A stretch of 64,000 nucleotides of DNA. It comes from a virus. Position numbers and translations under genes: made by a program. Of this stretch, positions 2,577-61,058 are shown piece by piece. Location of the stretch: IMG/VR virus record IMGVR_UViG_3300019889_000011; one strand, 5' to 3'. Below the pieces are notes generated by a model that was not told where the DNA came from, made no database searches, and saw nothing but the letters and a program-made list of their open reading frames with translations. Each line of letters starts with the position of its first letter. Position 1 is the first letter of the stretch.

Positions 2577-4322
2577 ATGAAGATCAACCGGGTCATATTG
2601 AAGCACATCCGCAGCCACAGCCATACCGTCATCCCGTTCGAGCGCGTCAGCTTCATTCGCGGCAAGAATAAGTCCGGCAAGACAACGGTCGCGATGGCGA
2701 TAGAGATGGTGCTGGCTGGCCGCTGCGCGGTCACCGATGAAGCTGGCAAGGGCTATGAGGAAGTCATTCAGGTGGGCCAACAGACGGGCACTGTGATCCT
2801 TGAGTGCGACACCGTCACTATCACCCTGACGCTCGACCGCAGCACCGGACGCACGCTCAAGGTACAGACCGGCGTCGGCACTACGAACGAACGAATCATG
2901 CTTGGCAAACAGGCTCAGGAGTGGATCGCCGAGAATATCGGCACCCCGGACGTAATCAACGCGACGCTCAATGCGTGGCGCTTCATGAGGCTGAGCGAGA
3001 ACGAGCAGGCATCGTTGCTGGCTCGCGTGCTTCTGCCGGCAAAATTGGAGCTTGAACCGGAGGTCAACAAGTGGCTTGCTGGCAGCAGATTATCCGTCGT
3101 CGAACGTCCTTCCTTGTTCGCAACCATCGAGGCAACCTACAAGGCTATCGCCGCTGCCCGTACCGACGTCAATCGCAAGCTGCGCGACCTGAAGGCCATC
3201 GTCGAGCCGGAGCCGACCGACGTTAGCGACAACGGCACGGTGGCCGCAGAGCTGGCCGGGAAACGTCGTGCCCTCGATGAGGAGATTGAAAGCATCGCCC
3301 GTCCTCTGACTTCGCTCCGCGAGAAGTTGTTGAACGATGAGACACGCAAGGCGCTCGAACTCAATGCACAGCTGCGAGAGCGACAGCCGCAGATACGCCT
3401 CACACTGATCGCCGAGCGTGACAACCTTGCGCGGATCGAGGATACGCTCAGCCATGCTGACGACGCCGTGTGTCCCACCTGCAAAGCGAAGCTGACACCG
3501 GAGGCGAGCAAAGCGTTTTTCGCTCCCTTCCGCGCGCGGGAGACCGAATCGAAGGCAACAATCACGCGACTGGAGAAGGAGTTGAAGTCATCCATCGACG
3601 CGGAGGTCGGCTCCAAGCAGCTGGCGGTCGACACTTCCAACCGGCAGGTGGTTCGTGACGCCGAGGGCCAGCTTGGACGATTGCGCGACCGGCTCGACTC
3701 TCTCAGCACTACCGACACCCTCGTCGCGAAGGCAGCGTTCGAAGCCAAGCACGCGGCATACGAAAAGCAAGTGAAGGAGCGCGAGCGCGCAGAGGTTCAA
3801 CTCGCCGAACTCGAAAAGCTGCTCGTGTTCTTCGGTCCTCGTGGCATCAAGGCAAAGCTAATCGCGGAGCGCCTGGACCTGTTCACGGAACACGTCAACG
3901 GCGTGCTCGACCAATGGGGATACTCGCTGGGCTTCACCATCGAGCCGTATTCGCTGCGCATCACGGAGACCGACCCAGAGACCGGCTTCGTTGGCCCGAT
4001 GCTCAGTCCCAACCAACTGAGCGCCTCTGAGTCATACCGGCTCGGCATTGCCTTCAGCATGGCGATTGCCTACTGGACCAACCTGCGTCTGCTCGTCGCA
4101 GACGGCGCGGACATTCTCGACAAGGACGACAAGTGGACGCTTGCGCAGGCGTTCCTGCAATCGGATCTGGAGCAGGCCATCATGACGTCGACCGGCATCG
4201 CAGGCACGTTTGAAGCGGCGGGCACGGCGTTCTACACACTATCGAAGTCCAACGGTGTCACAGCGCTCGAAGTGGACGCGGTTACGCCGATGGCTGAGGA
4301 GGTGGTGACCACATGCCGGTGA
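2577..4322 (+). CDS. SMC/Rad50/SbcC-like ATPase with zinc hook
   Basis: Walker A GKNKSGKT at the N-terminus, long coiled-coil middle with a CPTCKAKL CxxC hook, and a C-terminal LLVADGADILD Walker B / D-loop region. SD GAGGAG lies upstream of ATG 2577. Confidence 0.7.
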   Translation: MKINRVILKHIRSHSHTVIPFERVSFIRGKNKSGKTTVAMAIEMVLAGRCAVTDEAGKGYEEVIQVGQQTGTVILECDTVTITLTLDRSTGRTLKVQTGVGTTNERIMLGKQAQEWIAENIGTPDVINATLNAWRFMRLSENEQASLLARVLLPAKLELEPEVNKWLAGSRLSVVERPSLFATIEATYKAIAAARTDVNRKLRDLKAIVEPEPTDVSDNGTVAAELAGKRRALDEEIESIARPLTSLREKLLNDETRKALELNAQLRERQPQIRLTLIAERDNLARIEDTLSHADDAVCPTCKAKLTPEASKAFFAPFRARETESKATITRLEKELKSSIDAEVGSKQLAVDTSNRQVVRDAEGQLGRLRDRLDSLSTTDTLVAKAAFEAKHAAYEKQVKERERAEVQLAELEKLLVFFGPRGIKAKLIAERLDLFTEHVNGVLDQWGYSLGFTIEPYSLRITETDPETGFVGPMLSPNQLSASESYRLGIAFSMAIAYWTNLRLLVADGADILDKDDKWTLAQAFLQSDLEQAIMTSTGIAGTFEAAGTAFYTLSKSNGVTALEVDAVTPMAEEVVTTCR

Positions 4323-4906
4323 GCACATCGCTCCGCTTCGAGATCTTCGCTAGAGATGGATTTGTCTGCCAATACTGCGGCCATCGCCCGCCCGACGTCG
4401 TGCTCGAAGTCGACCACGTGCACCCCGTATCCAAAGGCGGGACAGATGATTCGATCAACCTCATTACAGCGTGCTTCGGTTGCAACCGAGGTAAGGCCGC
4501 AAAGGTACTCTCGAATATTGCGCCACGACCGGACGCGGACCTTGCTTACCTTCGGGAGGCTCAGATTGCCGCAGAAATGAAGCGGTTCTTGAAGACGCAA
4601 CGAGAGGCCAATAAGCAAATCGAGCTTGTCTGCCAGCACTTTCGCGAACGGTGGAGATTCTATCTTATGGAGCCGCCGCCGGACCCCGTGAAGCTCACGT
4701 TTTGGGTCAAGCGGTATGGTCCCGACGAGCTGGAAATATCTATCACGCGAGCCGGTGCAGCCTACCGTGTCGGTCGTTTCTACAACTCATACGACGCAAT
4801 CAGATACGTCGGAGGGATTCTGAAGTCCCGCGACAATGGCGGCGAACTACCACCAAAAACACCTCAACAACCACCTGTGCAGCCCGCAGCCTTCGATGAG
4901 TTCTGA
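4313..4906 (+). CDS. HNH endonuclease
   Basis: CQYCG...EVDHVHPVSKGG...NLITACFGCN (HNH motif with CxxC pairs). It overlaps the upstream ATPase gene by 10 nt (coupled). Confidence 0.75.
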   Translation: MPVSTSLRFEIFARDGFVCQYCGHRPPDVVLEVDHVHPVSKGGTDDSINLITACFGCNRGKAAKVLSNIAPRPDADLAYLREAQIAAEMKRFLKTQREANKQIELVCQHFRERWRFYLMEPPPDPVKLTFWVKRYGPDELEISITRAGAAYRVGRFYNSYDAIRYVGGILKSRDNGGELPPKTPQQPPVQPAAFDEF

Positions 4907-5753: not shown

Positions 5754-7165
5754 AACAGCTTGACCATGAACGGTACATAAGCCCGGTCGACAACTACGGA
5801 ACCGAGATGACGGTGCTTGGCGCGATTCTGGTGGATAGCCACGCATACGACGAAGCAGAGTCGATCACATACAACGACTTCGGACTCAGCTCACACCGGA
5901 CCATCTTCGGGAGGATGGCCGCGATGATTTCCGATGGCAAGGTCGTCGACATCGTCACGCTGTCCGAGGAGATGCGCAAGCACCGCGAGCTTGACGCTGT
6001 CGGCGGCGTTCCCTATCTCGCCTCCCTTAGCGAAGGGCTGCCGCGTCGCCTATCCATCGAGTCGTATGTGCGGATCGTGAAGGACAGGTCGCAACGCCGG
6101 TCCCTGATGAAGCTGTGCGACCACACCGTGACGCTGGCCGAAGACGAGAGCATCGGCACCGACGAGCTGCTGACTGACACCGACATGCGGCTCATGGAGA
6201 TCAGCGCAGAGAACGAGGCGGTCCACACGGTGACGCTGGCTCAGGCGTCCGACCGGGAGTTCGAGAAGATCATCGCGGAGCGGGACTCGAACAAGAGCTT
6301 CATCGGCATCCCCACCGGCCTCGATGTGCTTGACGCCAATGTCGGAGGCTGGGTGGAGGGCGAGCTGGCCGTCATTGCCGGGAAGCCGGGGCAGGGGAAG
6401 TCGTCGGCGCTGATCCAGACCCTTGTGCAGTGCGGCATGGATCGCGTTCCGGCACACATCTTCTCGCCGGAGATGACCAAAGGCCAGATACTGCGCCGCG
6501 TTTGGGCTGCCGTGGCGTCGCTGCCGTTCCACCTGCTCACACACCCCACCTTCCTGCACAGCGCCGACGTGGGGCGTTTACGCGAAGCAATGGCCGAGGT
6601 GTCGGGTTGGCCGCTGGTGATCGACGACGACAGCAACATCACCCCCAGCCAGCTCATCTCACGCGCGCGCATCTCCAAGCGGCGAAACGGCACGCGGCTG
6701 TTCGGCGTCGACTACCTGCAAAAGATGCACTTCCTGTCGAAGCCGGAACACCGCCACATCGAGGTCAGCGATGCCGCCGTCAAGCTGGCCAACCTTGCGA
6801 AGAAGGAACACGTCGCGGTGGTGGCGCTGAGTTCGCTGACGGACAAGGGTGGCAGGGCAAGGAACGCGCCGCCGACGTTGGGCGACCTGCGCCAGTCCGG
6901 GGATATCCAGTACGAAGCGTCGACTGTGGTCTTCATCCACCGCGAGTCAGAAGAGTCGACCGAGCAGATCAAAGACGACGGCTGGATGATCATCCCCAAG
7001 CAGCGCAACGGCAAGACCGGCCAGTTCGAAGTCCGGTACAACGAGCGGCTGATGTTTGAGGCGGGGAGCCAGCAGCGGACGTTCTCGGAACAAGCGCCGC
7101 GACCCACCCCAAAGCCGCGAGCCGTGCAGTATGCAATGCCACACAAAAACGACGTTTTCGATTGA
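5750..7165 (+). CDS. dnaB: Replicative DNA helicase DnaB
   Basis: N-terminal DnaB domain, then GIPTGLDVLD...AGKPGQGKSS Walker A and a RecA-like C-terminal region (DYLQKM, SSLTDKGG). Confidence 0.85.
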   Translation: MKQLDHERYISPVDNYGTEMTVLGAILVDSHAYDEAESITYNDFGLSSHRTIFGRMAAMISDGKVVDIVTLSEEMRKHRELDAVGGVPYLASLSEGLPRRLSIESYVRIVKDRSQRRSLMKLCDHTVTLAEDESIGTDELLTDTDMRLMEISAENEAVHTVTLAQASDREFEKIIAERDSNKSFIGIPTGLDVLDANVGGWVEGELAVIAGKPGQGKSSALIQTLVQCGMDRVPAHIFSPEMTKGQILRRVWAAVASLPFHLLTHPTFLHSADVGRLREAMAEVSGWPLVIDDDSNITPSQLISRARISKRRNGTRLFGVDYLQKMHFLSKPEHRHIEVSDAAVKLANLAKKEHVAVVALSSLTDKGGRARNAPPTLGDLRQSGDIQYEASTVVFIHRESEESTEQIKDDGWMIIPKQRNGKTGQFEVRYNERLMFEAGSQQRTFSEQAPRPTPKPRAVQYAMPHKNDVFD

Positions 7166-20604: not shown

Positions 20605-20657
20605 CCGAAGTGCTATGGTGTCCCACACAGCGGCAACCAGCGCGCAGGAGAAACTAC

Positions 20658-21236
20658 ATGGCAACGCTCTATAGAGCAGACGGAACCATCGAAACAATTC
20701 AACCAGCCAATGGCATCAACTTCAGCCTCGGGGAGTTGCAGACGCTCGTCGGCGGCTACATCGAGATCGTTCGCACGAAGGACGGTCAATTTTTAGTCTG
20801 CGACGAAAACGGCAAGGTCAGCGAGCAGCCCAAACACATCAACCTTCTGGCGACGCACATGTATCGGTACGGCGCGCACGATCCAATCGTCGGCGACGCG
20901 CTGGTTGGAACTCTCCTTGAGGTCGACGGGCCACCGGATGTGGAAGAGGAGGAGTTGACCGAGCTGCAATACACGGTGCCTGTGAAGGGTGAGAGTTTCC
21001 GTCTCTACATCTTTGGCGATGACGGTATGCACTCAGGTGGTCAATGGTTCCGGCGAATGCCGGTCTATCCCGACGAGGAGATCACGGTCCACGAGGCCAA
21101 GACTCGCGCAGAGGCTGCGATCGCGGCTGGCTCTGAGATCCGCATCACCGATGGCGGCGACATGCTGGTCTACCACTTCAAGGGCGGCAAGCAGCTGTAT
21201 CCGGCTGGCACGGCAGACGTGTGGGAGGCCATGTGA
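20658..21236 (+). CDS. DUF3846-like protein
   Basis: N-terminus MATLYRADGTIETIQPANGINFSLGELQTLVGGYIEIV resembles the DUF3846 signature common in phage and plasmid accessory genes. Confidence 0.4.
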   Translation: MATLYRADGTIETIQPANGINFSLGELQTLVGGYIEIVRTKDGQFLVCDENGKVSEQPKHINLLATHMYRYGAHDPIVGDALVGTLLEVDGPPDVEEEELTELQYTVPVKGESFRLYIFGDDGMHSGGQWFRRMPVYPDEEITVHEAKTRAEAAIAAGSEIRITDGGDMLVYHFKGGKQLYPAGTADVWEAM

Positions 21237-22023: not shown

Positions 22024-22559
22024 CGAACGTTGATATCAGCACACTCATGCAGCTTGAAATGGCCGCAGCCATCGAGCAGAAGCGAAAGCTCGGGACGGGT
22101 GACGACAATTTCAGGATGAGCATCAAAATCGTCGGTCCCGGAGGATCGGTTGCAGATGTTCCGCTGCAATGGTCGAGCATGCAGGACAAGTATCTGAAAA
22201 TGGGAATCCTCTCGCATCTCTGTGAACACGTGTCGGCGGTGGCTGCCGTAGTTACATCGGACGTTCGCCGTCTGAACTCGAAGGCGTTCTGCTCGCGCTT
22301 CAAGCTCGACTATGCCGACAGCGCGATGTTCAAAAAGGAATACGACCGGATCATGGCCGACTACAACCACGAGATGGTCAACCTGCCGCGTGAGACGTGG
22401 GAGGAATCATTGTTTGTCGTTGCATACGGACCCCGCACGAAAAAGATGCTGGTGGCTCCCTATGCGGTGGTTGGCGGTGGCTTCATGTTTGAACGGCCAG
22501 AATTCGCAAACGAGGATGCGGAACTGGAGGTCGGGTTGATACCGGCTTGGTGGGTTTGA
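22020..22559 (+). CDS. Hypothetical protein
   Basis: ORF only. Confidence 0.35.
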   Translation: MTNVDISTLMQLEMAAAIEQKRKLGTGDDNFRMSIKIVGPGGSVADVPLQWSSMQDKYLKMGILSHLCEHVSAVAAVVTSDVRRLNSKAFCSRFKLDYADSAMFKKEYDRIMADYNHEMVNLPRETWEESLFVVAYGPRTKKMLVAPYAVVGGGFMFERPEFANEDAELEVGLIPAWWV

Positions 22560-22642
22560 GGGTAGCCAACCGCGCCGACACGTGGCCGCTGGTGGCGCTC
22601 ACGCTGGAGGATGCGCCTAATTCCCCGCCCCACCAACGACGA

Positions 22643-22670
22643 CGCCCCCACGAGGCTGTGGGGGCGTTTG
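22643..22670 (+). terminator. Rho-independent terminator at end of plus-strand early arm
   Basis: CGCCCCCAC-GAGGCT-GTGGGGGCG hairpin followed by TTTG. Confidence 0.5.
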
Positions 22671-22702
22671 GCTGTCTGCTTCAGGGTTCGGGCGGGATTA
22701 GT

Positions 22703-23080
22703 TCACAGTTCGCCCGCGACCAAGTGAAGCTCTGTTTTCGTGTGTCCTTTTTGGTCTTGGACCTGTACCATCAGGCCGCCGTAACCAGTGCCTATGCGAT
22801 AGGCCTGAAACTCCATGCCGACGGTCAGATCGATATTGCGTGCGTTGGTTGCTGGTGCCGCCGTGACGATCAGCGTTATCCTTCGGAGGTTGGGGTTGGA
22901 GTTCTCGGGGTCGAGCATCTCGACCGTCACTGTAGGAATACGGTCGCCCCTGAGCCCCCTCGTATAGCCGCTTTCGACCACCTTGCCACCCATCCAAATA
23001 TGGTCGGCAGCGCGAAGGCTCGACACGGCGAACAGCGTGAACAGCAGAGTTGCAATCGTGGAACTGAGTAGCTTCTTCAT
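22703..23080 (-). CDS. Secreted small protein (signal peptide), moron candidate
   Basis: MKKLLSSTIATLLFTLFAVSSLRAAD signal peptide. The conserved leader motif precedes ATG 23080. Confidence 0.5.
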   Translation of the reverse strand: MKKLLSSTIATLLFTLFAVSSLRAADHIWMGGKVVESGYTRGLRGDRIPTVTVEMLDPENSNPNLRRITLIVTAAPATNARNIDLTVGMEFQAYRIGTGYGGLMVQVQDQKGHTKTELHLVAGEL

Positions 23081-23298
23081 TTTGAATCTCCTGCGGCGGG
23101 TGCCGCTGTGACTGGTGCCGGTTTCGATGTGCAATACGGTGTGTGGGCGCGTAACTCACGAGCGCCGAACGACCGTTCGCAATATGGGCACGGACGCTCT
23201 ACCTTCGGGCGCGATGGCACCTCTGCCCGTTTGCGCCTCAGCCACTCCAGCGCATAGGGCTCAAGCTCCTCGGTGGTGAACTTCTCCAGCGACTTCAT
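23077..23298 (-). CDS. C2HC zinc-finger protein (single finger)
   Basis: CPYCERSFGARELRAHTPYC, the same finger type as the three repeats in 54767-55213. Confidence 0.45.
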   Translation of the reverse strand: MKSLEKFTTEELEPYALEWLRRKRAEVPSRPKVERPCPYCERSFGARELRAHTPYCTSKPAPVTAAPAAGDSK

Positions 23299-23837
23299 CG
23301 CGCGCCGCCGACGGTCTCAGTCAGCCGCGCCAGCTTGACTACTTCGCCATGCAGTGCCGGGTGGCTCAGCCTTACCGTCCCCATGATTGCCAAGCCTTCG
23401 ATAAGGAACTTCATGCTCTTCCAGAGCACAGCGTCGACCGTGATTGTTGCTGCCTGCGCCTCTGTGGTGTCTGACTGCGTCATCGTGTTTCTCCCTGCGG
23501 TTGGTGCCGCTGTTGTTGTGCGTGCTTCTAACTTCGCTATGACTTCGTCTAGCTCGTCGAGCGCGTTACCGATAGCAGGTGCCGGAAGGTTCCAGCTGCT
23601 GACCGGTGCCGTCGCCAGCACGGTCTCTACAAGGTTCGCGACGACCCTTGCTTCAAGTGCTTGGATCGCTTCCTTTTTCGTGAAGCCGAGGACGCACTGT
23701 GAGAAGTGCTTTCCGCTGACCTGCTCATACCACCATCCATTCTCGGGGTCGCGGTAGATGGTGTGTTGCCGCTCGCCGATGGTTACGGTGTACTCGCCGG
23801 TGGTGCTGAAGTCTGCGTTGCGTTTCGTCGTCGTCAT
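23295..23837 (-). CDS. Hypothetical protein; may be two in-frame genes
   Basis: Continuous 180-aa ORF. The conserved leader motif occurs upstream of ATG 23837 and again in-frame upstream of internal Met 23483. Confidence 0.4.
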   Translation of the reverse strand: MTTTKRNADFSTTGEYTVTIGERQHTIYRDPENGWWYEQVSGKHFSQCVLGFTKKEAIQALEARVVANLVETVLATAPVSSWNLPAPAIGNALDELDEVIAKLEARTTTAAPTAGRNTMTQSDTTEAQAATITVDAVLWKSMKFLIEGLAIMGTVRLSHPALHGEVVKLARLTETVGGAR

Positions 23838-23877
23838 TGTGTTTCTCCTGCGGCTGGTGACCGCTTTGGGTTGAGGG

Positions 23878-24048
23878 TTAGTTTGCTAGGAAGGTCTTCG
23901 TTACGTGCCAGTCTTGCGCGTTGCCGGTGTTGTTGTCGTTGTAGACCCGCACCGTGTTCTCGATCACTTCGCATACCACGCCTGTCTCGCCGTATACGTT
24001 TCTAACTTTGTCGCCTGCTTTGAAGGTGGTCCGTGTCGTCGTGGTCAT
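23878..24048 (-). CDS. Small hypothetical protein (56 aa)
   Basis: Translated by hand as MTTTTRTTFKAGDKVRNVYGETGVVCEVIENTVRVYNDNNTGNAQDWHVTKTFLAN. The conserved leader precedes ATG 24048. Confidence 0.4.
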   Translation of the reverse strand: MTTTTRTTFKAGDKVRNVYGETGVVCEVIENTVRVYNDNNTGNAQDWHVTKTFLAN

Positions 24049-24316
24049 CGGTATGGCTCCTGCGGCTGGTAGCCGCTTGGTACGCTGTCCAGCGTAGACA
24101 CATTACTCTAACGTGTACAGTTCTATTTTCAGGAATCGACCGGGCCGGGAGGCGAACAAGAAATGTCGGCTTTTTGTGTTCGGGACATTCCGGGAGGGTT
24201 GGTATAGGCGGGGTCAGCGGGGGATGGCGGGTGGCCCTTGGCTCAGGATTGGCTGAACTTCGCGCCACGTTGCCCTGTGTGGCCTCGGCGCGCCCCGGGT
24301 GGGGGAAACGGGCGCG

Positions 24317-24388
24317 GTCAGGAACCCGGCGCGCCCACGGCCAACAGCGGCAATCCGTCAGGAACATGTCAGGAACCGCGTCAGGAAC
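24317..24388 (+). repeat. Arm-type direct repeats (4 x GTCAGGAAC), left of att core
   Basis: Copies at 24317, 24357, 24368 and 24380; the last three are spaced 11-12 bp apart. Confidence 0.55.
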
Positions 24389-24560
24389 CGGAAAAGAATT
24401 TATTGAATTTATGGACGCATAAGAAGCATTTTACTGGGCCAAAACGTGACGACGCGGAGCGTGTAAATCCTAACGTTTCAAAGAGTTGTGGCGTATCTCA
24501 TGGAAAAGAAAACACGTTAGCCTGTTTTTTGCTAAGTCTATGAAAACTCGTCGCAAGGTT

Positions 24561-24607
24561 GGCTACGAACCAGTAGGTCGGGTGTTCGAATCACTCCGGG
24601 CGCACCA
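24561..24607 (+). tRNA. 3' portion of tRNA-Arg(ACG): anticodon loop through CCA. This is the att core, with no 5' half present.
   Basis: GGCTACGAACC anticodon region (anticodon ACG), T-arm GGGTG-TTCGAAT-CACTC, acceptor 3' strand CGGGCGC, discriminator A, then CCA. Near-identical to the same segment of E. coli tRNA-Arg(ACG) as recalled from memory. No matching 5' acceptor strand (GCGCCCG) or D-arm is present upstream. Confidence 0.6.
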
Positions 24608-24677
24608 TACAAACCCCACAAAACACAATACTTAGAGGCTTCCGGCCCTTCCCCCAGAAAGGCCGAAAACCCCAAAT

Positions 24678-24746
24678 GTCAGGAACCGGTCAGCAACCGG
24701 GTTTCGGAAAAAGCAAGGTTCGCGGTAAGCAAACCGCGTCAGCAAC
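24678..24746 (+). repeat. Arm-type direct repeats (GTCAGGAAC, 2 x GTCAGCAAC), right of att core
   Basis: Copies at 24678, 24689 and 24738, in the same orientation as the left-arm copies. Confidence 0.5.
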
Positions 24747-24763
24747 CGCGAGGACTGGCCGGG

Positions 24764-26086
24764 TCATCGCCCCGCCTTGCCCTCGCCGTCCTGCCGGAAC
24801 ATCTTCTCCAGCTCCGCGACGTCCCTTTGCGCCGCCTCCTCAGCCGCTGAGCGCGCCGCCAGCACCTTGTGCCCGTCCGCGATGAAGGCTTCCATAGTGG
24901 ACGGAATGACGCTGCGCACCCCGGGCATGAAGTGCGAATACTTGTCCATCGTGGTCGCGATACGGGAGTGGCCCAGCTGCTCCTGCACCAGCTTGGGGTG
25001 GACCGCCGCCGCCAACTGCGCCGAGGCGAAGGCGTGGCGCAGGCTGTGCAGATGAATCGAGGCGGGCAAGCCAGCCGCCGCGCGCAGCTCGGCGAAGACG
25101 GAGGTCGTGGTATCGGGATGGAAGTTGTCGCCGTAGGTCGACGCGAACACAAAGTCCTGTTCGTTCCACCGCCCACCCGCCTTCGTCCGTTGCGCCCGCT
25201 GTAGCTCTGCCTGCTGGACCAGAGCGTCCAGAACCAACGGCGAGATTTCAATGTCCCGCCTCGACTTCGATCCGGTCTTGAGCGCAGCCATCCGCGACCC
25301 GGCCCCGGAGAAACGCTTGGTCGGTTGCACCTTGAGCCGTTTGACCCGTACCCTCTGGATTTCATTGCGCACGCTGATCCACCCTCCAGTCAGATCCACG
25401 TCCTGCCAGCGCAACGCCACCACCTCGCCGCGCCGCAGTCCCGACATCATGCTCACGATGATGAAGGTCCGCCACTTGCTATTTTCTATGCTGCGCAACA
25501 GGTGGGCGCTCTGCTCAGCGTTCAGGGGAACGAACTGCGCATGCTCTTCGCGCACCGCCTTGCCGTCGTTGGTCTTGACCAGCTTGGCGACGTTTCGTTC
25601 CAGCAGGCCATCGCGCACCGCCGATTCCAGCATGGTCGAGATGGTCTCGTGGATGGCCTTGATGGAGCGGCGGCTGTAAGGCTTGCCAAGCCTGCTGTTC
25701 ATCTCGCGCTTGTCGTTGAGCATCTTGCGGATGTGGTCTGGCCGCAGGTCGTTCAGCCGAACCTTTCCAATGGCCGGGATGATATGCAGCCGGGTCGGAC
25801 CCTCGTAGTACTCGAAGGTGTTCGGCTGGTCCTTGACCGCGACGATCTCGCGCAGCCAGCTGTCAGCATGCATCGCCACGGTCAACTTCGCTGGCGCAAC
25901 CGCAATTCCCTTCCGCGTGTTTTCATTCTGCTGATCGAGCCATCGCTTGGCGTCGCCTTTGAGTTCGCAGGTCTTCGACCTCCGATCCAGCTTGCCATCG
26001 GGCTTGCGACCCACAATTATCTCTGCGCGCCAACCGCGCCCCTCAACAAAAAATATGCTGCCTTCACCGTTTCCCCTTTTTCCCAT
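24764..26086 (-). CDS. int: Tyrosine site-specific integrase
   Basis: C-terminal catalytic region LHSLRHAFAS (HxLRH) ... LGHSRIATTMDKYSH (catalytic Tyr), with an N-terminal SAM-like/core-binding domain. Confidence 0.9.
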   Translation of the reverse strand: MGKRGNGEGSIFFVEGRGWRAEIIVGRKPDGKLDRRSKTCELKGDAKRWLDQQNENTRKGIAVAPAKLTVAMHADSWLREIVAVKDQPNTFEYYEGPTRLHIIPAIGKVRLNDLRPDHIRKMLNDKREMNSRLGKPYSRRSIKAIHETISTMLESAVRDGLLERNVAKLVKTNDGKAVREEHAQFVPLNAEQSAHLLRSIENSKWRTFIIVSMMSGLRRGEVVALRWQDVDLTGGWISVRNEIQRVRVKRLKVQPTKRFSGAGSRMAALKTGSKSRRDIEISPLVLDALVQQAELQRAQRTKAGGRWNEQDFVFASTYGDNFHPDTTTSVFAELRAAAGLPASIHLHSLRHAFASAQLAAAVHPKLVQEQLGHSRIATTMDKYSHFMPGVRSVIPSTMEAFIADGHKVLAARSAAEEAAQRDVAELEKMFRQDGEGKAGR

Positions 26087-49160: not shown

Positions 49161-49541
49161 ATGACCACCAAGCAGACCAAAGTCGCCACCGCCGCCAAGA
49201 AGTCCACCACCAAGAAGGCCACCACGAAGAACACGCCCAGCAAGACTGCTGCGGCCAAGCCCAAGGCCACGAAACCGGCCAGCGTTCGCGCACAGTCGCC
49301 CACCACGCCGCCCAAGGCAGCAACGGAGGGGAAACCTACCACCCCGCGCAAGGACGGCACCAAGGCTAAAGTCTTGGCGATGATCAGCCAGAAGGGTGGA
49401 GCCACCCTGCCGAAGATCATGGAAGCCACCGGCTGGCAGGCTCACAGCGTCCGTGGCCTGATGGCGACGCTGGGCAAGACGATGAAGATCGAGAGCCTGA
49501 AGAACGAGGCTGGCCAGCGCACGTATATTCATCACGCGTAG
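49161..49541 (+). CDS. Histone H1-like low-complexity protein with DUF3489-like C-terminal domain
   Basis: SD AGGAGG. K/T/A-rich N-terminus (KKSTTKKATTKNTPSKTAAAKPKATKPA), then KVLAMISQKGGATLPKIMEATGWQAHSVRGLMATLGK. Its orientation is opposite to the flanking genes. Confidence 0.5.
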   Translation: MTTKQTKVATAAKKSTTKKATTKNTPSKTAAAKPKATKPASVRAQSPTTPPKAATEGKPTTPRKDGTKAKVLAMISQKGGATLPKIMEATGWQAHSVRGLMATLGKTMKIESLKNEAGQRTYIHHA

Positions 49542-50803
49542 GTTCCAGTCTGTTCGGCAGAGGCGGCAGAGATGCCGCCTTCGCTCGTTCTGGCTGCTTT
49601 CAATTCCTCGAACGTCCTGCCGTCGCCGTCGAGCGTGGCCTGCTTGCCGGTGAAGGTCTGCCAGCGCGTGATGATGACGTCGCAGTAAGCCGGATCAATC
49701 TCCGTGGTACGGCATAGCCGCCCTTCCATCTCGCAGGCAATCAGCGTGGTTCCGGACCCGCCGAACGGGTCGAGGACCACGTCGCCGCCCTTGCTGCTGT
49801 TCGCAATTGGGTATGCCACCAGCGCAACTGGCTTCATCGTCGGGTGCTCTTGGCTTTGCGACGGTCGGTCGAAGTGCCAGAGCGTCGTCTGCTTCCGGTC
49901 CGAGTACCAGCGATGGGCTGCTGTCGCCTTCCAGCCGTACAACACAGGCTCGTGTTGCCACTGGTAGTCCGAACGTCCGAACACCATGGTCTGCTTCGCC
50001 CAGACGCAACACGCGGCCAGATAGAAGCCAGCCTCAAGGTACGCTTTGCGGAAGTTGAGACCCTCGGTATCGGCGTGGAAGATGTAGATGGATGCGCCGT
50101 CGCCCATCGCGTTGAACATGCACCGATAGGCGTTCAGCAGGAAGCCGTAGAAGTCGAGATCGTCTTTCTTGTCGTTCTCGATCTTCAGCGCCTTCTTTGT
50201 CTTGCCGGTGTAGTCGATGTTGTATGGCGGGTCCGTCACCACCAGCGCAGCCGAGCGTCCGTCCATCAGCCGGTCGACATCAGCCTGCTTCGTGGAATCG
50301 CCGCATAGCAGTCGGTGGTTGCCGAGCACCCAGAGGTCTCCAGCCTGCGTGACCGGCGTCGCGGGCACCGCTGGAACTTCGTCCGCGTCCGTGAGGCTGT
50401 CCGTAGACTTCGCCATCAACTCCGCAAGTTCGCTCTCGTCGAATCCGGTCAGGCTCATGTCCATGTCGAGCGCTCTCAGATCCAGCAGCTCCGCGCCGAG
50501 CAGAGCGGAATCCCAATCGGTCTCGTCGTGGCTTCGGTTATCCATGAGCCGGTATGCGCGAACCTGTGTCGGGTTGAGGTCGGTGGCGACGTGAACCGGC
50601 ACCGTCTCCGCGCCCATCCTCTTCGCTGCCAGCAGCCGCGCGTGACCGACGATGATAACGCCTTCGGTATCAACGACGATGGGTTGCCGCCAGCCGAACT
50701 CGCGAATGCTCGCAGCTACCTTGTCGACGGCGGCGTCGCTGATCTTTCGAGCGTTTTGCGGATACGGCGTGGGGCGGCCAATCGGCCAGGATTCAATGTT
50801 CAT
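49532..50803 (-). CDS. ParB-like nuclease domain fused to N6/N4 DNA methyltransferase
   Basis: N-terminal ParB-like region (QPIVVDTEGVIIVGHARLLAA), a central TDPPY motif, and a C-terminal AdoMet site VLDPFGGSGTT. Confidence 0.8.
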   Translation of the reverse strand: MNIESWPIGRPTPYPQNARKISDAAVDKVAASIREFGWRQPIVVDTEGVIIVGHARLLAAKRMGAETVPVHVATDLNPTQVRAYRLMDNRSHDETDWDSALLGAELLDLRALDMDMSLTGFDESELAELMAKSTDSLTDADEVPAVPATPVTQAGDLWVLGNHRLLCGDSTKQADVDRLMDGRSAALVVTDPPYNIDYTGKTKKALKIENDKKDDLDFYGFLLNAYRCMFNAMGDGASIYIFHADTEGLNFRKAYLEAGFYLAACCVWAKQTMVFGRSDYQWQHEPVLYGWKATAAHRWYSDRKQTTLWHFDRPSQSQEHPTMKPVALVAYPIANSSKGGDVVLDPFGGSGTTLIACEMEGRLCRTTEIDPAYCDVIITRWQTFTGKQATLDGDGRTFEELKAARTSEGGISAASAEQTGTYA

Positions 50804-58906: not shown

Positions 58907-60091
58907 TTACGCTGGCGACGATGTGAAGGTGCCTGTGAGGAACGACGCGGCTCTTTTGACCACCAAACACATGCGTTTCTCTGCGCGGCACGCTACGAGG
59001 TTCTTCGTAAAGTAATCTGCGTGCTCGGTGCTCACTTCATATTGAATTTCCATTCTGTCGCGAATCTCTGCCGCTGCCGGGTTGCCGCTGCCGACTAGAA
59101 AAGTTCCGGCGCTGATGCTGGTCGTCGGAATAACGAGCAGGTCGAACAGCATCGCGTTGGCCGTGGTCTGTGGGTCTCCGATCAAAAAACGGCCCAAGGT
59201 ATCCTTCGTCAACCGGATGTTCCACCAGTCGTTCGGGTTCAACACGATGAAGCTGGGAGTTAGTTCCTTGGCCGAGGTCAATTGCTGGACAGCACGACCG
59301 ACGATATCGATGCGGCTATAGCTGCCGGAACCTAGCAGCGACGGGTTGAATGGAGTGGCCTGCCCGAGGATGCCGTGGAGATTTTCTCCGGTGTTATCGC
59401 CGCCGAGAATTTGCTGTTCTTCGGCAAGATTTACATAAAACGTGAGGCTGGTTTCGAGGAAACTGGCGAGTTCCTCGAAGTCATCAAGAATATTTTTAGA
59501 GGCCGGAATCCAAGTCGCAATCGTCTTCACCCGCTCACTCGCAGAGGTGAACGCGAGCGCGTTCTCTGCCTTCGCCGCACCTTCCACTTGTGGCGATGCA
59601 ATCCCCAGAGGCGTACTCACGCGCACAAAATCGACCATGCCCATTGAGGTCGGTCGAGCTGTCAGCGCATCGCGCACGGTCAACTCTTGTCGAGGTTCGG
59701 CGGTGATGCCCCGGTCGCGATCGATCGGCAATACTCCGGTGGTCTGCGAGCCTTGCCCGGTCGACGTGATGACCGCTTTGCGCTGGAGGATCTGTTCGGC
59801 ATCCTTGCCGCTGAGCGTGATGATGGCGCTGCCGCGGCGGTCGTGAAGGAGACGCTGGAAGCCTTCGTGAGTCTTCAAATGTTCGACGAATCCAGGCGTC
59901 ATCGAGACGTTGCCGAGGCGGTCGTGATTTTGCAAATCCAAAGAATCGACCTGCGTTTGAATCGCCTTCTGCTGCGAAACGAGCGATTCGACGGACGATT
60001 TGATGCCGTCGAGGACTTCGACCACTGCTTTAGTTTCCATGGGGAGACAACTCCGTTGAACGGCTGGGATTTCGTCGGTGCTGGTCGGCAA
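58907..60091 (-). CDS. Major capsid protein, HK97 fold, second (paralogous) copy
   Basis: Collinear with 43227-44426 (shared blocks GDNTGENL, LNPNDWWNIR, TKDTLGR, AAAEIRDRME, EHADYFTKNLVA). Confidence 0.8.
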   Translation of the reverse strand: MPTSTDEIPAVQRSCLPMETKAVVEVLDGIKSSVESLVSQQKAIQTQVDSLDLQNHDRLGNVSMTPGFVEHLKTHEGFQRLLHDRRGSAIITLSGKDAEQILQRKAVITSTGQGSQTTGVLPIDRDRGITAEPRQELTVRDALTARPTSMGMVDFVRVSTPLGIASPQVEGAAKAENALAFTSASERVKTIATWIPASKNILDDFEELASFLETSLTFYVNLAEEQQILGGDNTGENLHGILGQATPFNPSLLGSGSYSRIDIVGRAVQQLTSAKELTPSFIVLNPNDWWNIRLTKDTLGRFLIGDPQTTANAMLFDLLVIPTTSISAGTFLVGSGNPAAAEIRDRMEIQYEVSTEHADYFTKNLVACRAEKRMCLVVKRAASFLTGTFTSSPA

Positions 60092-60557: not shown

Positions 60558-61058
60558 TCAATCGCCGCACAGCGCTCTCTCCAGCGGGTCGTCCATGCTG
60601 CCCGGAACGAAGGCACCCGTCGTCGTCGCGATCCGCGACCTTGAGGCAGGCGTCATGCCGAATTGCTGTAGCATCCGACTCACGATCTCGGCCTGCGCAT
60701 TGATGATTCCCAAGAGCGGTGACTGCATCAGGTAGCCGGTTTTCGTCTGCAACAAGAGCGTCGAGCGATTGCCTTTCGCCGATCTCACCATCAGGCTCTG
60801 AGCCTCAATCAAGGTTCCATACGCCTGACAAAGAATCGCCAGCGCTACCCCATCCGCTTCGCTCAGCACCCGCATCGAGAGCAGGAGTGGAACCAATCTT
60901 CTCCATTCCTTGCGAGCTATGGCGGTCAGGTGTTTCGGCATCTCTGGTGCTCCAATCAGTGGCGTCGGCTCGCGGTCATTCAACTTCTGGTGACCGCGAT
61001 TACCTTCGTAAATCCGCAGTGCAGTTGGTTTCGGTGGTGGTCCCGGCATGATATTCAC
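60558..61058 (-). CDS. terS: Terminase small subunit, P27 family, second copy
   Basis: MNIMPGPPPKPTALRIYEGNRGHQKLNDREP matches the P27 N-terminal signature. Confidence 0.7.
   Translation of the reverse strand: MNIMPGPPPKPTALRIYEGNRGHQKLNDREPTPLIGAPEMPKHLTAIARKEWRRLVPLLLSMRVLSEADGVALAILCQAYGTLIEAQSLMVRSAKGNRSTLLLQTKTGYLMQSPLLGIINAQAEIVSRMLQQFGMTPASRSRIATTTGAFVPGSMDDPLERALCGD

Follow-up and report, generated by a model that had tools for sequence, protein, structure and literature searches.

A short RNA hairpin that runs directly into a Shine-Dalgarno (SD) sequence stands before start codons at six places in the 64,000-nucleotide (nt) viral DNA IMGVR_UViG_3300019889_000011 (the window, which is the whole stretch analysed), and the element recurs ahead of more than 100 unrelated genes from viral contigs, metagenome contigs and metagenome-assembled genomes (MAGs) of Acidobacteriaceae/Terriglobia. 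The element consists of an A residue, a GC-rich stem of 5 bp (sometimes 6) that usually closes a NACCA loop, and AGGAG(A), with a start codon, mostly ATG, 5–8 nt further on; the consensus is A-GCSGC-NACCA-GCSGC-AGGAGA. The combination of hairpin and SD has apparently not been described before. The reading we favour, with a probability of roughly 70%, is that the repeat serves as a portable module for translation initiation, which holds the SD exposed and doubles as a recombination joint.

The four minus-strand copies that an earlier, sequence-only reading had reported in a cassette of small genes are all present, each just 5′ of an ATG (Table 1). The genome-wide search proposed by that reading was run with a covariance model, built from 41 instances and applied unfiltered to the whole window; it returned the four cassette copies and two more on the plus strand of the early region (matches at 13057-13088 and 20622-20654). 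The repeat is not cassette-specific, and the earlier observation understated it. The match to copy 1 (24053-24084) scores 36.4 bits (E=4.3e-10) and that to copy 2 38.7 bits (E=6.9e-11). Copy 2 has a U.G fifth pair and is intergenic, the stop codon of gpA lying 13 nt upstream, while copy 4 (23.7 bits, E=1.1e-5) is formed by the last codons of the zinc-finger open reading frame (ORF) gpC, 23077-23298 (..AAPAAGDSK, then stop). Copy 5 (33.8 bits, E=3.4e-9) precedes ORF 13094-13534, whose 146-aa product has a hydrophobic N-terminus, and copy 6 (30 bits, E=7.3e-8) precedes a DUF3846 gene at 20658-21236 (DUF3846 E=9.7e-10). Both stem variants, GCGGC/GCCGC and GCCGC/GCGGU, occur within the window. The covariance-model scan found no copy in the structural module at 27-53 kb. 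The simple pattern GCGGN{4,9}CCGCAGG matches five times in the window, where 0.59 matches would be expected; 100 shuffled sequences all gave fewer than five.

Pairing of the stem is strongly supported by covariation, and the element is an RNA hairpin. The evidence comes from two scans in which pairing was not imposed. In the first, on viral contigs with the three inner pairs left free (AGNNNCNACCAGNNNCAGGAGA), 31 of 91 unique matches were fully complementary, against approximately 5% expected (p=2e-17); ATG stood at the right distance behind 22 of these 31 compared with 11 of the 60 others (Fisher p=1.6e-6). The complementary arms were CGG/CCG, CCG/CGG, ACG/CGT, AGG/CCT, CTA/TAG and TCG/CGA, together with three single arm types that are probably due to chance (GCC/GGC, GAA/TTC and CAC/GTG). 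In the second scan, on metagenomes with one pair free (AGCSGCNACCAGCSGCAGGAGA), C-G (65) and G-C (35) gave 100 complementary matches as opposed to four that were not (G/G 3, C/C 1). A start codon followed 95 of the 100 complementary matches, 78 of these being ATG (82%), and none of the four others; the distance from AGGAGA to the start peaks at 6 nt. Pooled instances comprise 17 arm combinations, including U-A and A-U at pair 5, G.U wobbles and a C-G first pair (CUCGC/GCGAG), and the curated alignment contains double changes at four of the five pairs. Taken together, each pair of the stem has compensatory changes in its support. Behind 72 of 77 covariance-model matches there is a start codon with an ORF of at least 25 aa.

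The G.U pairs, an orientation that strictly follows that of the gene and a constant distance to the start codon speak for a structure that acts as RNA rather than as double-stranded DNA. A site working at the DNA level, whether an operator or stoperator, a promoter for a phage polymerase or sigma factor, or an integron-like recombination site, is accordingly very improbable. Such a site would fit the partly palindromic sequence and the homology breakpoints that relatives show at the motif (see below), and a Sigma70_r4 protein is encoded on one related contig. However, compensatory G.U pairs work on one strand only, the element always has the orientation of the downstream gene at 5–8 nt from its start codon, a canonical SD is contained in it, and neither a promoter consensus nor an attC-like architecture was seen.

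The predicted hairpins have energies of -6 to -10.2 kcal/mol. In minimum free energy (MFE) or centroid structures the SD and the AUG are unpaired in five of the six window copies, and the hairpin abuts the SD in all of them; in copy 1 it is part of the MFE structure, with SD and AUG free. These data on position and pairing bear out the earlier description of a reiterated element of the translation-initiation region with its hairpin set against the SD. When the loop was left free in a scan (AGCCGCNNNNNGCGGCAGGAGA), NACCA or ATCCA was found in 19 of 30 unique matches, and ATG followed at 5–7 nt after 7 of the 11 other loops. Since hairpins with other loops still precede ATG, the core of the element appears to be the hairpin abutting the SD, with NACCA dominant but dispensable.

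It is possible, though we consider it unlikely, that a trans-acting RNA-binding factor (a host protein, a ribosome component or a phage protein) uses the hairpin as its operator and co-regulates, by repression or activation, the translation of an early or accessory regulon, in the manner of T4 RegA, Mu Com or the coat-protein operators. This would be compatible with a translation-initiation module and could be an added layer on it. The NACCA loop and the flanking A are nearly invariant while the stem covaries, the window copies are limited to non-structural genes, and genomes carry several copies; a tandem pair that lacks a start codon (described below) could serve as a decoy. On the other hand, hairpins with other loops occupy the same position before ATG, and lineages with very different genes and G+C content have an identical loop, unlike what a phage-specific, co-evolving protein would produce. 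Nor is any candidate factor common to all motif loci: the zinc-finger protein gpC, which was considered for this role after the example of Mu Com, was rejected, since homologs of it occur in L054 and L056 alone, both close relatives. Two other partners were considered and rejected. The 3′ arm and loop of variant A resemble the complement of the helix-45 3′ strand and linker of 16S ribosomal RNA (rRNA), but the stem covaries freely, a continuous helix would need another order relative to the SD, and within the ribosome the rRNA strand in question is already base-paired. Mimicry of a transfer RNA (tRNA) acceptor end or anticodon loop, suggested by the ACCA loop and by 'GCAACCA' as at the 3′ end of tRNAfMet, has the wrong topology for recognition by RNase P or a synthetase, and the base before ACCA varies.

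Outside the window the element is widespread. A scan of IMG/VR with the motif, the loop and one stem base open found the same 21-mer just 5′ of ATG or GTG in many unrelated viral contigs. Among 185,579 species genomes (one per bacterial or archaeal species, searched with one stem variant) there were 18 matching stretches; the nine loci with genuine context, that is, a start codon behind the motif or a conserved tandem, all belong to Acidobacteriaceae/Terriglobia MAGs, with one or two copies each. Matches in Actinomycetota, Steroidobacteraceae, Parafilimonas, Spirochaetales and one Holophagaceae contig look chance-like, with no start codon after them. The phages that carry the motif, presumably including the one in the window, probably infect Acidobacteriota. 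Motif-bearing loci have in common a small terminase of the Terminase_4 family (PF05119), and some also large terminase and portal families. Copy numbers reach 11 in the analysed part of contig L029 and five within 6.4 kb of L056. Across all loci 7 of 85 copies overlap an upstream ORF, most lying 20–100 nt or more past the upstream stop. The DUF3846 gene of L056 is led by a motif copy, as it is in the window, and proteins of L009 and L049 whose N-termini resemble that of ORF 13094 (by eye, unaligned) also follow motif copies; the motif is thus kept at apparently equivalent genes while its stem bases change.

The same distribution bears on the suggestion that the repeats are a cassette-duplication scar. 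Four copies lie within 1 kb, and some are followed by similar first codons (MTTT..), as a local duplication or a functionless chance similarity might leave them. Yet the same element, with compensatory stem changes, stands before more than 100 unrelated genes on independent contigs in many phages, its count in the window far exceeds expectation, the stem is maintained through double substitutions, and a copy inside a coding sequence is kept in an ortholog despite amino-acid changes. Distribution and covariation already contradict a scar or chance origin, the likelihood of which we regard as negligible.

A tandem pair of motifs 53 nt apart, with no credible start codon behind it, was noted in L029 (1187-1271), L036 (313-344), L041 (7535-7619), L048 (5657-5688) and L051 (1501-1585, minus strand), and it is conserved across one viral contig and four MAGs of Acidobacteriaceae. 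The second copy, which has a degenerate form in L036, lies within an inverted repeat, GGGAAGUGCGGC...GCCGCACUUCCC, just 5′ of a run of ribozymes, motifs and genes. The tandem could be a leader, a decoy or a hybrid of motif and hammerhead, as 'AGGAGAACGGGA..CGAAAC' resembles the hammerhead sequence 'CUGAUGAGAACGGGACGAAAC'.

Relatives of the cassette were obtained by protein search and exact-protein look-ups with gpB; a search of viral contigs for gpB relatives gave none, and no DNA similarity of the window to known phages was found. The relatives comprise an ortholog of 80% identity (L054), a partial one of 71% (L055) and two distant ones (L056 and L058). Absence of the motif from homologous cassettes would have counted against the sequence-only reading; it is present in L054, L055 and L056, and in L054 and L055 it is kept before the orthologous gpB. 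Comparison of the window with L054 shows homology spanning copy 2 and gpB and resuming in the zinc-finger part of gpC, then stopping exactly at the 5′ edge of copy 4 (23110/23109), where the L054 homolog of gpC runs on into a DUF2442 domain, followed by a stop and a spacer. Copy 4 and about 11 codons of gpD are common again up to a second break at approximately 23047, beyond which the genes are unrelated (gpD as against a 196-aa gene). L054 also has an extra 92-aa gene. In L055 the cassette leader and motif are joined straight to the gpB-like gene, gpA and one motif copy being missing.

The motif therefore also marks joints of cassette exchange, as judged from these breakpoints. Variation of the kind known for morons, that is, presence or absence of genes between relatives, is observed directly (gpA is absent from L055 and gpD is replaced in L054), and the cassette is clearly a variable, att-proximal accessory region. 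In support of the proposed att-proximal position, a 3′ tRNA gene fragment, the probable attP core, lies between integrase and cassette; no complete tRNA is present in the window. The independent Logan assemblies L001 and L003 both end at 24589, inside this fragment. The two window copies embedded in coding sequence were probably placed there by deletions that fused an upstream ORF to the leader of the next gene.

One of these two, copy 3, lies in frame within gpB, the 180-aa ORF 23295-23837, and encodes ..AAPTAGRNTM... The suggestion that this internal copy is meaningful gains support from the 80%-identical ortholog: L054 624-655 (GCGGCACCCGCCGCAAGGAGAgacacgATG) is the counterpart of copy 3, with stem, SD, spacing and ATG all kept. 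The stem is improved there by base changes that alter amino acids (TAAPTAGRNTM to TAAPAARRDTM). RNA features kept while amino acids change are expected under selection for internal initiation and make a nested 62-aa product likely, in a comparison of two sequences (window and L054). The copy probably drives separate synthesis of the C-terminal part of gpB; a distant homolog, P0004, has both regions in one chain. The cassette, described before as four genes, thus has five reading frames (gpA, gpB and the nested 62-aa frame, gpC and gpD). It had also been said that every one of its genes is led by the motif, but gpC, whose start overlaps the stop codon of gpB in the sequence ATGA, lacks a copy. 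Its zinc-finger assignment is weakly supported: the zf-C2HC_2 match (E=4.6e-4) is below the Pfam cut-off, although a CxxC...HxxxC pattern can be read in the sequence. Pfam and PHROG searches gave no match for gpA, gpB and gpD.

All four motif-led starts of the cassette (24048, 23837, 23483 and 23080) read ATGA; the comparison of first codons also took in L054 842. The first codons MTTT(T/K)R are common to gpA, gpB and the 92-aa L054 gene, though these genes are unrelated, and the start MKKLL(S/N)ST is common to gpD and the unrelated 196-aa L054 gene. The second residue is Lys or Thr in 39 of 72 motif-led ORFs; Lys and Thr second codons are typical of efficiently initiated genes. A comparison of SD usage across the window by crude gene calling was uninformative, because the start choice of longest ORFs is unreliable.

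In two related lineages the motif is coupled to hammerhead ribozymes. At least five motif copies of the L029 lineage have a RAGATH-1-like type I hammerhead 8–16 nt upstream, with intact CUGAUGA/GAAA/GUC cores and the pattern ...ACUGC-CUGAUGA-GANCGGGAC-GAAA-[stem III]-GUC, cleavage site, GCAGU... Rfam aligns three of them to RAGATH-1 at about 26 bits, with the catalytic-core positions and stems I and III intact, and the same arrangement was found at 16 motif copies in metagenome contigs. In the L011/L034 lineage Hammerhead_II matches score 39.7 and 39.6 bits, above the gathering score of 37; that of L011 abuts a motif copy, and a second L011 match (32.7 bits) lies about 75 nt before another. 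Ribozymes near motif copies were also sought in 14 further metagenome loci and in a mixed set of 20, and the hammerheads of L011 and L034 were the only ones seen. The ribozymes of both lineages are putatively active. A recurring 'CAGTTA' 5′ flank was tried as a promoter and rejected, since in the L029 lineage it is the 3′ strand of hammerhead stem I. Processing of transcripts at the hairpins themselves, as first proposed, is not supported by this arrangement: where processing is predicted in relatives, the upstream hammerhead would cut, not the hairpin.

The position of the hammerheads immediately upstream in two lineages could indicate that the main role of the hairpin is to stabilise the 5′ ends, or to mark the processing sites, of monocistronic messenger RNAs (mRNAs) freed by ribozymes or host ribonucleases (RNases). 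The distance of most copies from the preceding stop codon would suit this role, and 5′-proximal hairpins are reported in the RiboJ literature to raise transcript levels (PMC6206723). We nevertheless hold it to be distinctly unlikely, as most scanned loci, the window included, have no ribozyme, and neither the invariant abutment of the SD nor the fixed spacing to ATG would be necessary for it. The 5-bp stem is also below the length that RNase III needs, and the 5′-OH carried by ribozyme products is already a poor entry for 5′-end-dependent RNases.

For the module that we propose, a short and stable hairpin whose 3′ strand runs directly into the SD would fix the bases 5′ of the SD in a local fold. 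The SD and the start codon would thereby be single-stranded regardless of the upstream sequence, giving a portable, context-insulated and strong ribosome-binding site (RBS), which a broad group of temperate tailed phages would use for selected non-structural genes. In the two hammerhead lineages, the mRNA would start a few nt before the hairpin after cleavage. Near-identical modules before unrelated genes would at the same time provide a homology patch for the swapping, insertion and deletion of genes.

Several points weigh against this reading. An effect on translation or mRNA stability is something we infer from the sequence. The alignment behind the covariance model (A3) was selected for pairing, so that its 100% pairing is by construction and only the unbiased scans test the pairing; shuffling z-scores of the short leaders (-0.3 to -1.6) are not significant alone, and the case for structure therefore rests on covariation. 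Copy 3 is a weak covariance-model match (14.7 bits, E=0.014). The L029-type hammerheads fall under the Rfam gathering threshold (26 vs 56 bits), and Rfam scans detected no ribozyme in the window, which limits a RiboJ-like interpretation to the relatives. The assignment of hosts comes from the titles of MAGs with motif matches and not from the window itself. Finally, a purely structural insulator would not require anything near the conservation seen in the NACCA loop and the A residues beside it, an excess that hints at a specific partner. More tentatively, and with less than even odds by a wide measure, the element may be a dedicated phage translation signal whose NACCA loop is read by a ribosomal or phage factor, and which together with hammerheads forms a natural system of gene-by-gene mRNA processing and insulation.

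Searches of Rfam 15 gave no relevant match, either for 22500-24800 and two canonical copies from L028 at E<=10 or for the whole window at gathering score, and a literature search of 8 million papers with the motif strings found no relevant one. The nearest described phenomenon is the start-associated sequence (SAS), with its extended form (ESAS), of Cluster K mycobacteriophages, a short AGGAG-containing sequence 3–7 bases before start codons (PMC3203893). It has a 13-bp consensus, 5'-GGGATAGGAGCCC, and is essentially absent from the host chromosome; its role is not established, a part in translation initiation being suspected, and its authors found no support for RNA pairing of the ESAS inverted repeats (PMC3203893). 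Like SAS, the present motif occurs in one orientation, in many copies per genome and a few bases before the start, with ATG preferred. It is likewise limited to non-structural genes (the window copies lie at 13.1, 20.6 and 23-24 kb only) and is conserved before unrelated gene families. The sequences differ, however, with only the AGGAG core in common. The hosts of SAS phages are Actinobacteria, SAS has no hairpin whereas the pairing of the motif is supported by covariation, and no ribozyme association is reported for SAS.

The promoter-early stem-loop (PeSL) of T4-type phages is a composite of promoter and terminator acting on transcription (PMC2839356, PMC4122927). It is also a short motif beside small accessory ORFs in plastic regions and a homology patch for ORF exchange; the breakpoints at the motif (23110/23109 and approximately 23047 against L054) and the loss of gpA between copies 1 and 2 in L055 agree with such a role. 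Unlike PeSL, the cassette region 22400-24800 has no sigma-70 promoter-like site, and the stem-loop is followed by an SD and not by a U-run. We class the element as a start-associated phage signal of the SAS kind and as a member of neither the SAS nor the PeSL family. The lambdoid nut/boxB sites are not matched either. BoxB has a 5-bp stem with a GNRA-like pentaloop, occurs once or twice per genome beside boxA and is not tied to start codons; the motif has a NACCA loop and six window copies, each 5–8 nt before an ATG.

RiboJ is an engineered insulator made of the sTRSV (satellite tobacco ringspot virus) hammerhead, a 23-nt hairpin and an RBS; it has been suggested that the hairpin contributes to exposing the RBS, and as the terminal hairpin after cleavage it may stabilise the mRNA (PMC6206723). 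The order of hammerhead, hairpin and RBS is the same in the L029 and L011/L034 lineages, and predicted folds of the motif copies in the window leave the RBS unpaired. In contrast, RiboJ is placed once after a promoter, whereas the natural units are repeated between the genes of a polycistronic region, their hairpin abuts the SD and has a conserved loop, and in most phages, including that of the window, there is no ribozyme. Perreault et al. 2011 (PMC3088659) described several prophage hammerheads that flank single genes or small blocks and proposed that they cut long transcripts into gene-length mRNAs. This layout is seen at the L029 and L011 loci; the window differs in having no hammerhead. 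As searched here, PMC3088659 contains no Shine-Dalgarno or ribosome-binding terms, so that the unit of hairpin and SD is apparently not described there.

Table 1. Coordinates of motif copies, cassette genes and neighbouring features in the window, and of hammerheads in related contigs.
Feature	Position	Strand	Details
Copy 1	24056..24077	-	A-GCGGCU ACC AGCCGC-AGGAG = AGCGGCTACCAGCCGCAGGAGC; 8 nt to ATG 24048 of gpA; 5′ leader of cassette
Copy 2	23844..23865	-	A-GCGGU CACCA GCCGC-AGGAGA = AGCGGTCACCAGCCGCAGGAGA; 7 nt to ATG 23837 of gpB
Copy 3	23490..23511	-	A-GCGG CACCAA CCGC-AGGGAGA, degenerate; GCGGCACCAACCGCAGGGAGA from 23510; 6 nt to ATG 23483
Copy 4	23086..23107	-	A-GCGGC ACCC GCCGC-AGGAGA; GCGGCACCCGCCGCAGGAGA from 23106; 6 nt to ATG 23080 of gpD
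Copy 5	13064..13085	+	'variant B' stem A-GCCGC AACCA GCGGU-AGGAGA; 8 nt to ATG 13094
Copy 6	20629..20651	+	A-GCGGC AACCA GC(G)CGC-AGGAGA, one bulged G; 6 nt to ATG 20658
gpA	23878..24048	-	56 aa
gpB	23295..23837	-	180 aa, two regions; C-terminal 62 aa = 23295-23483 with own motif, SD and ATG
gpC	23077..23298	-	73 aa, C2HC zinc-finger-like, CxxC...HxxxC pattern visible
gpD	22703..23080	-	125 aa, putative Sec-type signal peptide (MKKLLSSTIATLLFTLFAVSSLRA/AD, by eye)
GC-rich stem-loop	22640..22690		GCCCCCAC..GUGGGGGC; between convergent cassette and plus-strand operon
Near-palindrome	24098..24116	-	ACACGTTAGAGTAATGTGT; upstream of copy 1; L055 version ACACATTAGGGTAATGTGT
tRNA gene, 3′ part	24555..24607	+	..GGTGTTCGAATCACTCCGGGCGCACCA, ending ..GGGCGCACCA; between integrase and cassette
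Tyrosine integrase	24764..26086	-	440 aa; Phage_integrase E=4.7e-19, phrog_1 E=5e-58
Hammerheads, L029	1746-1806, 2352-2398, ~3016-3066, 4332-4379, ~5810-5860		directly 5′ of motif-bearing genes
Type II hammerheads, L011	1625-1682, 1142-1203	-	
Type II hammerhead, L034	1180-1237	-	

The window represents a temperate phage of the HK97 type, with genes for capsid, prohead protease, portal, TerL, TerS and tape measure, and with the replication genes DnaB, a PD-(D/E)XK nuclease and an SMC-like ATPase. A promoter scan of 22400-24800 called no consensus sigma-70 promoter for the cassette. The near-palindrome upstream of copy 1 overlaps a -10-like TAGAGT and is a candidate operator or -10 region. At the other end of the cassette, the GC-rich stem-loop is a candidate bidirectional terminator, which a simple terminator scan did not call owing to the lack of a U-run; the segment 22670-22583, which covers part of it (22583-22670), is 76% identical to L054 2871-2958. 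In the 460-nt gap before copy 5, a distance of only 8 nt separates TTGACG from a perfect TATAAT (13022-13045, plus strand), which is not a canonical promoter spacing. Beside the complete head module at 43-49 kb there is a second Phage_capsid gene (58907-60091, minus strand, E=1e-32) and also a second Terminase_4 small-terminase gene (60558-61058, minus strand, E=3e-20), and both may be part of a satellite or of another phage-like element adjacent to the main phage. Next to the small terminase, a ParB_N domain is fused to an N6/N4 DNA methylase (49532-50803, minus strand).

The motif is of practical use in annotation, as it pinpoints true start codons, including that of the nested 62-aa frame in gpB, and flags likely exchange joints in mosaic genomes. 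It is a covariation-supported RNA motif new to Rfam and is abundant in phages of Acidobacteriota, a major soil phylum that has received little study and whose characterised phages are few. As the SAS of mycobacteriophages does, it illustrates that phages can tag a subset of their genes with a common signal in the initiation region, here with a clear RNA structure that makes the signal directly testable. The coupling to hammerheads in two lineages offers a concrete hypothesis for the role of phage hammerheads, and nature has apparently reached the same layout of ribozyme, hairpin and RBS as the insulator of synthetic biology. If the hypothesis is true, bacterial and phage hammerheads would generate mRNAs with a standard, highly efficient ribosome-binding module at their start.

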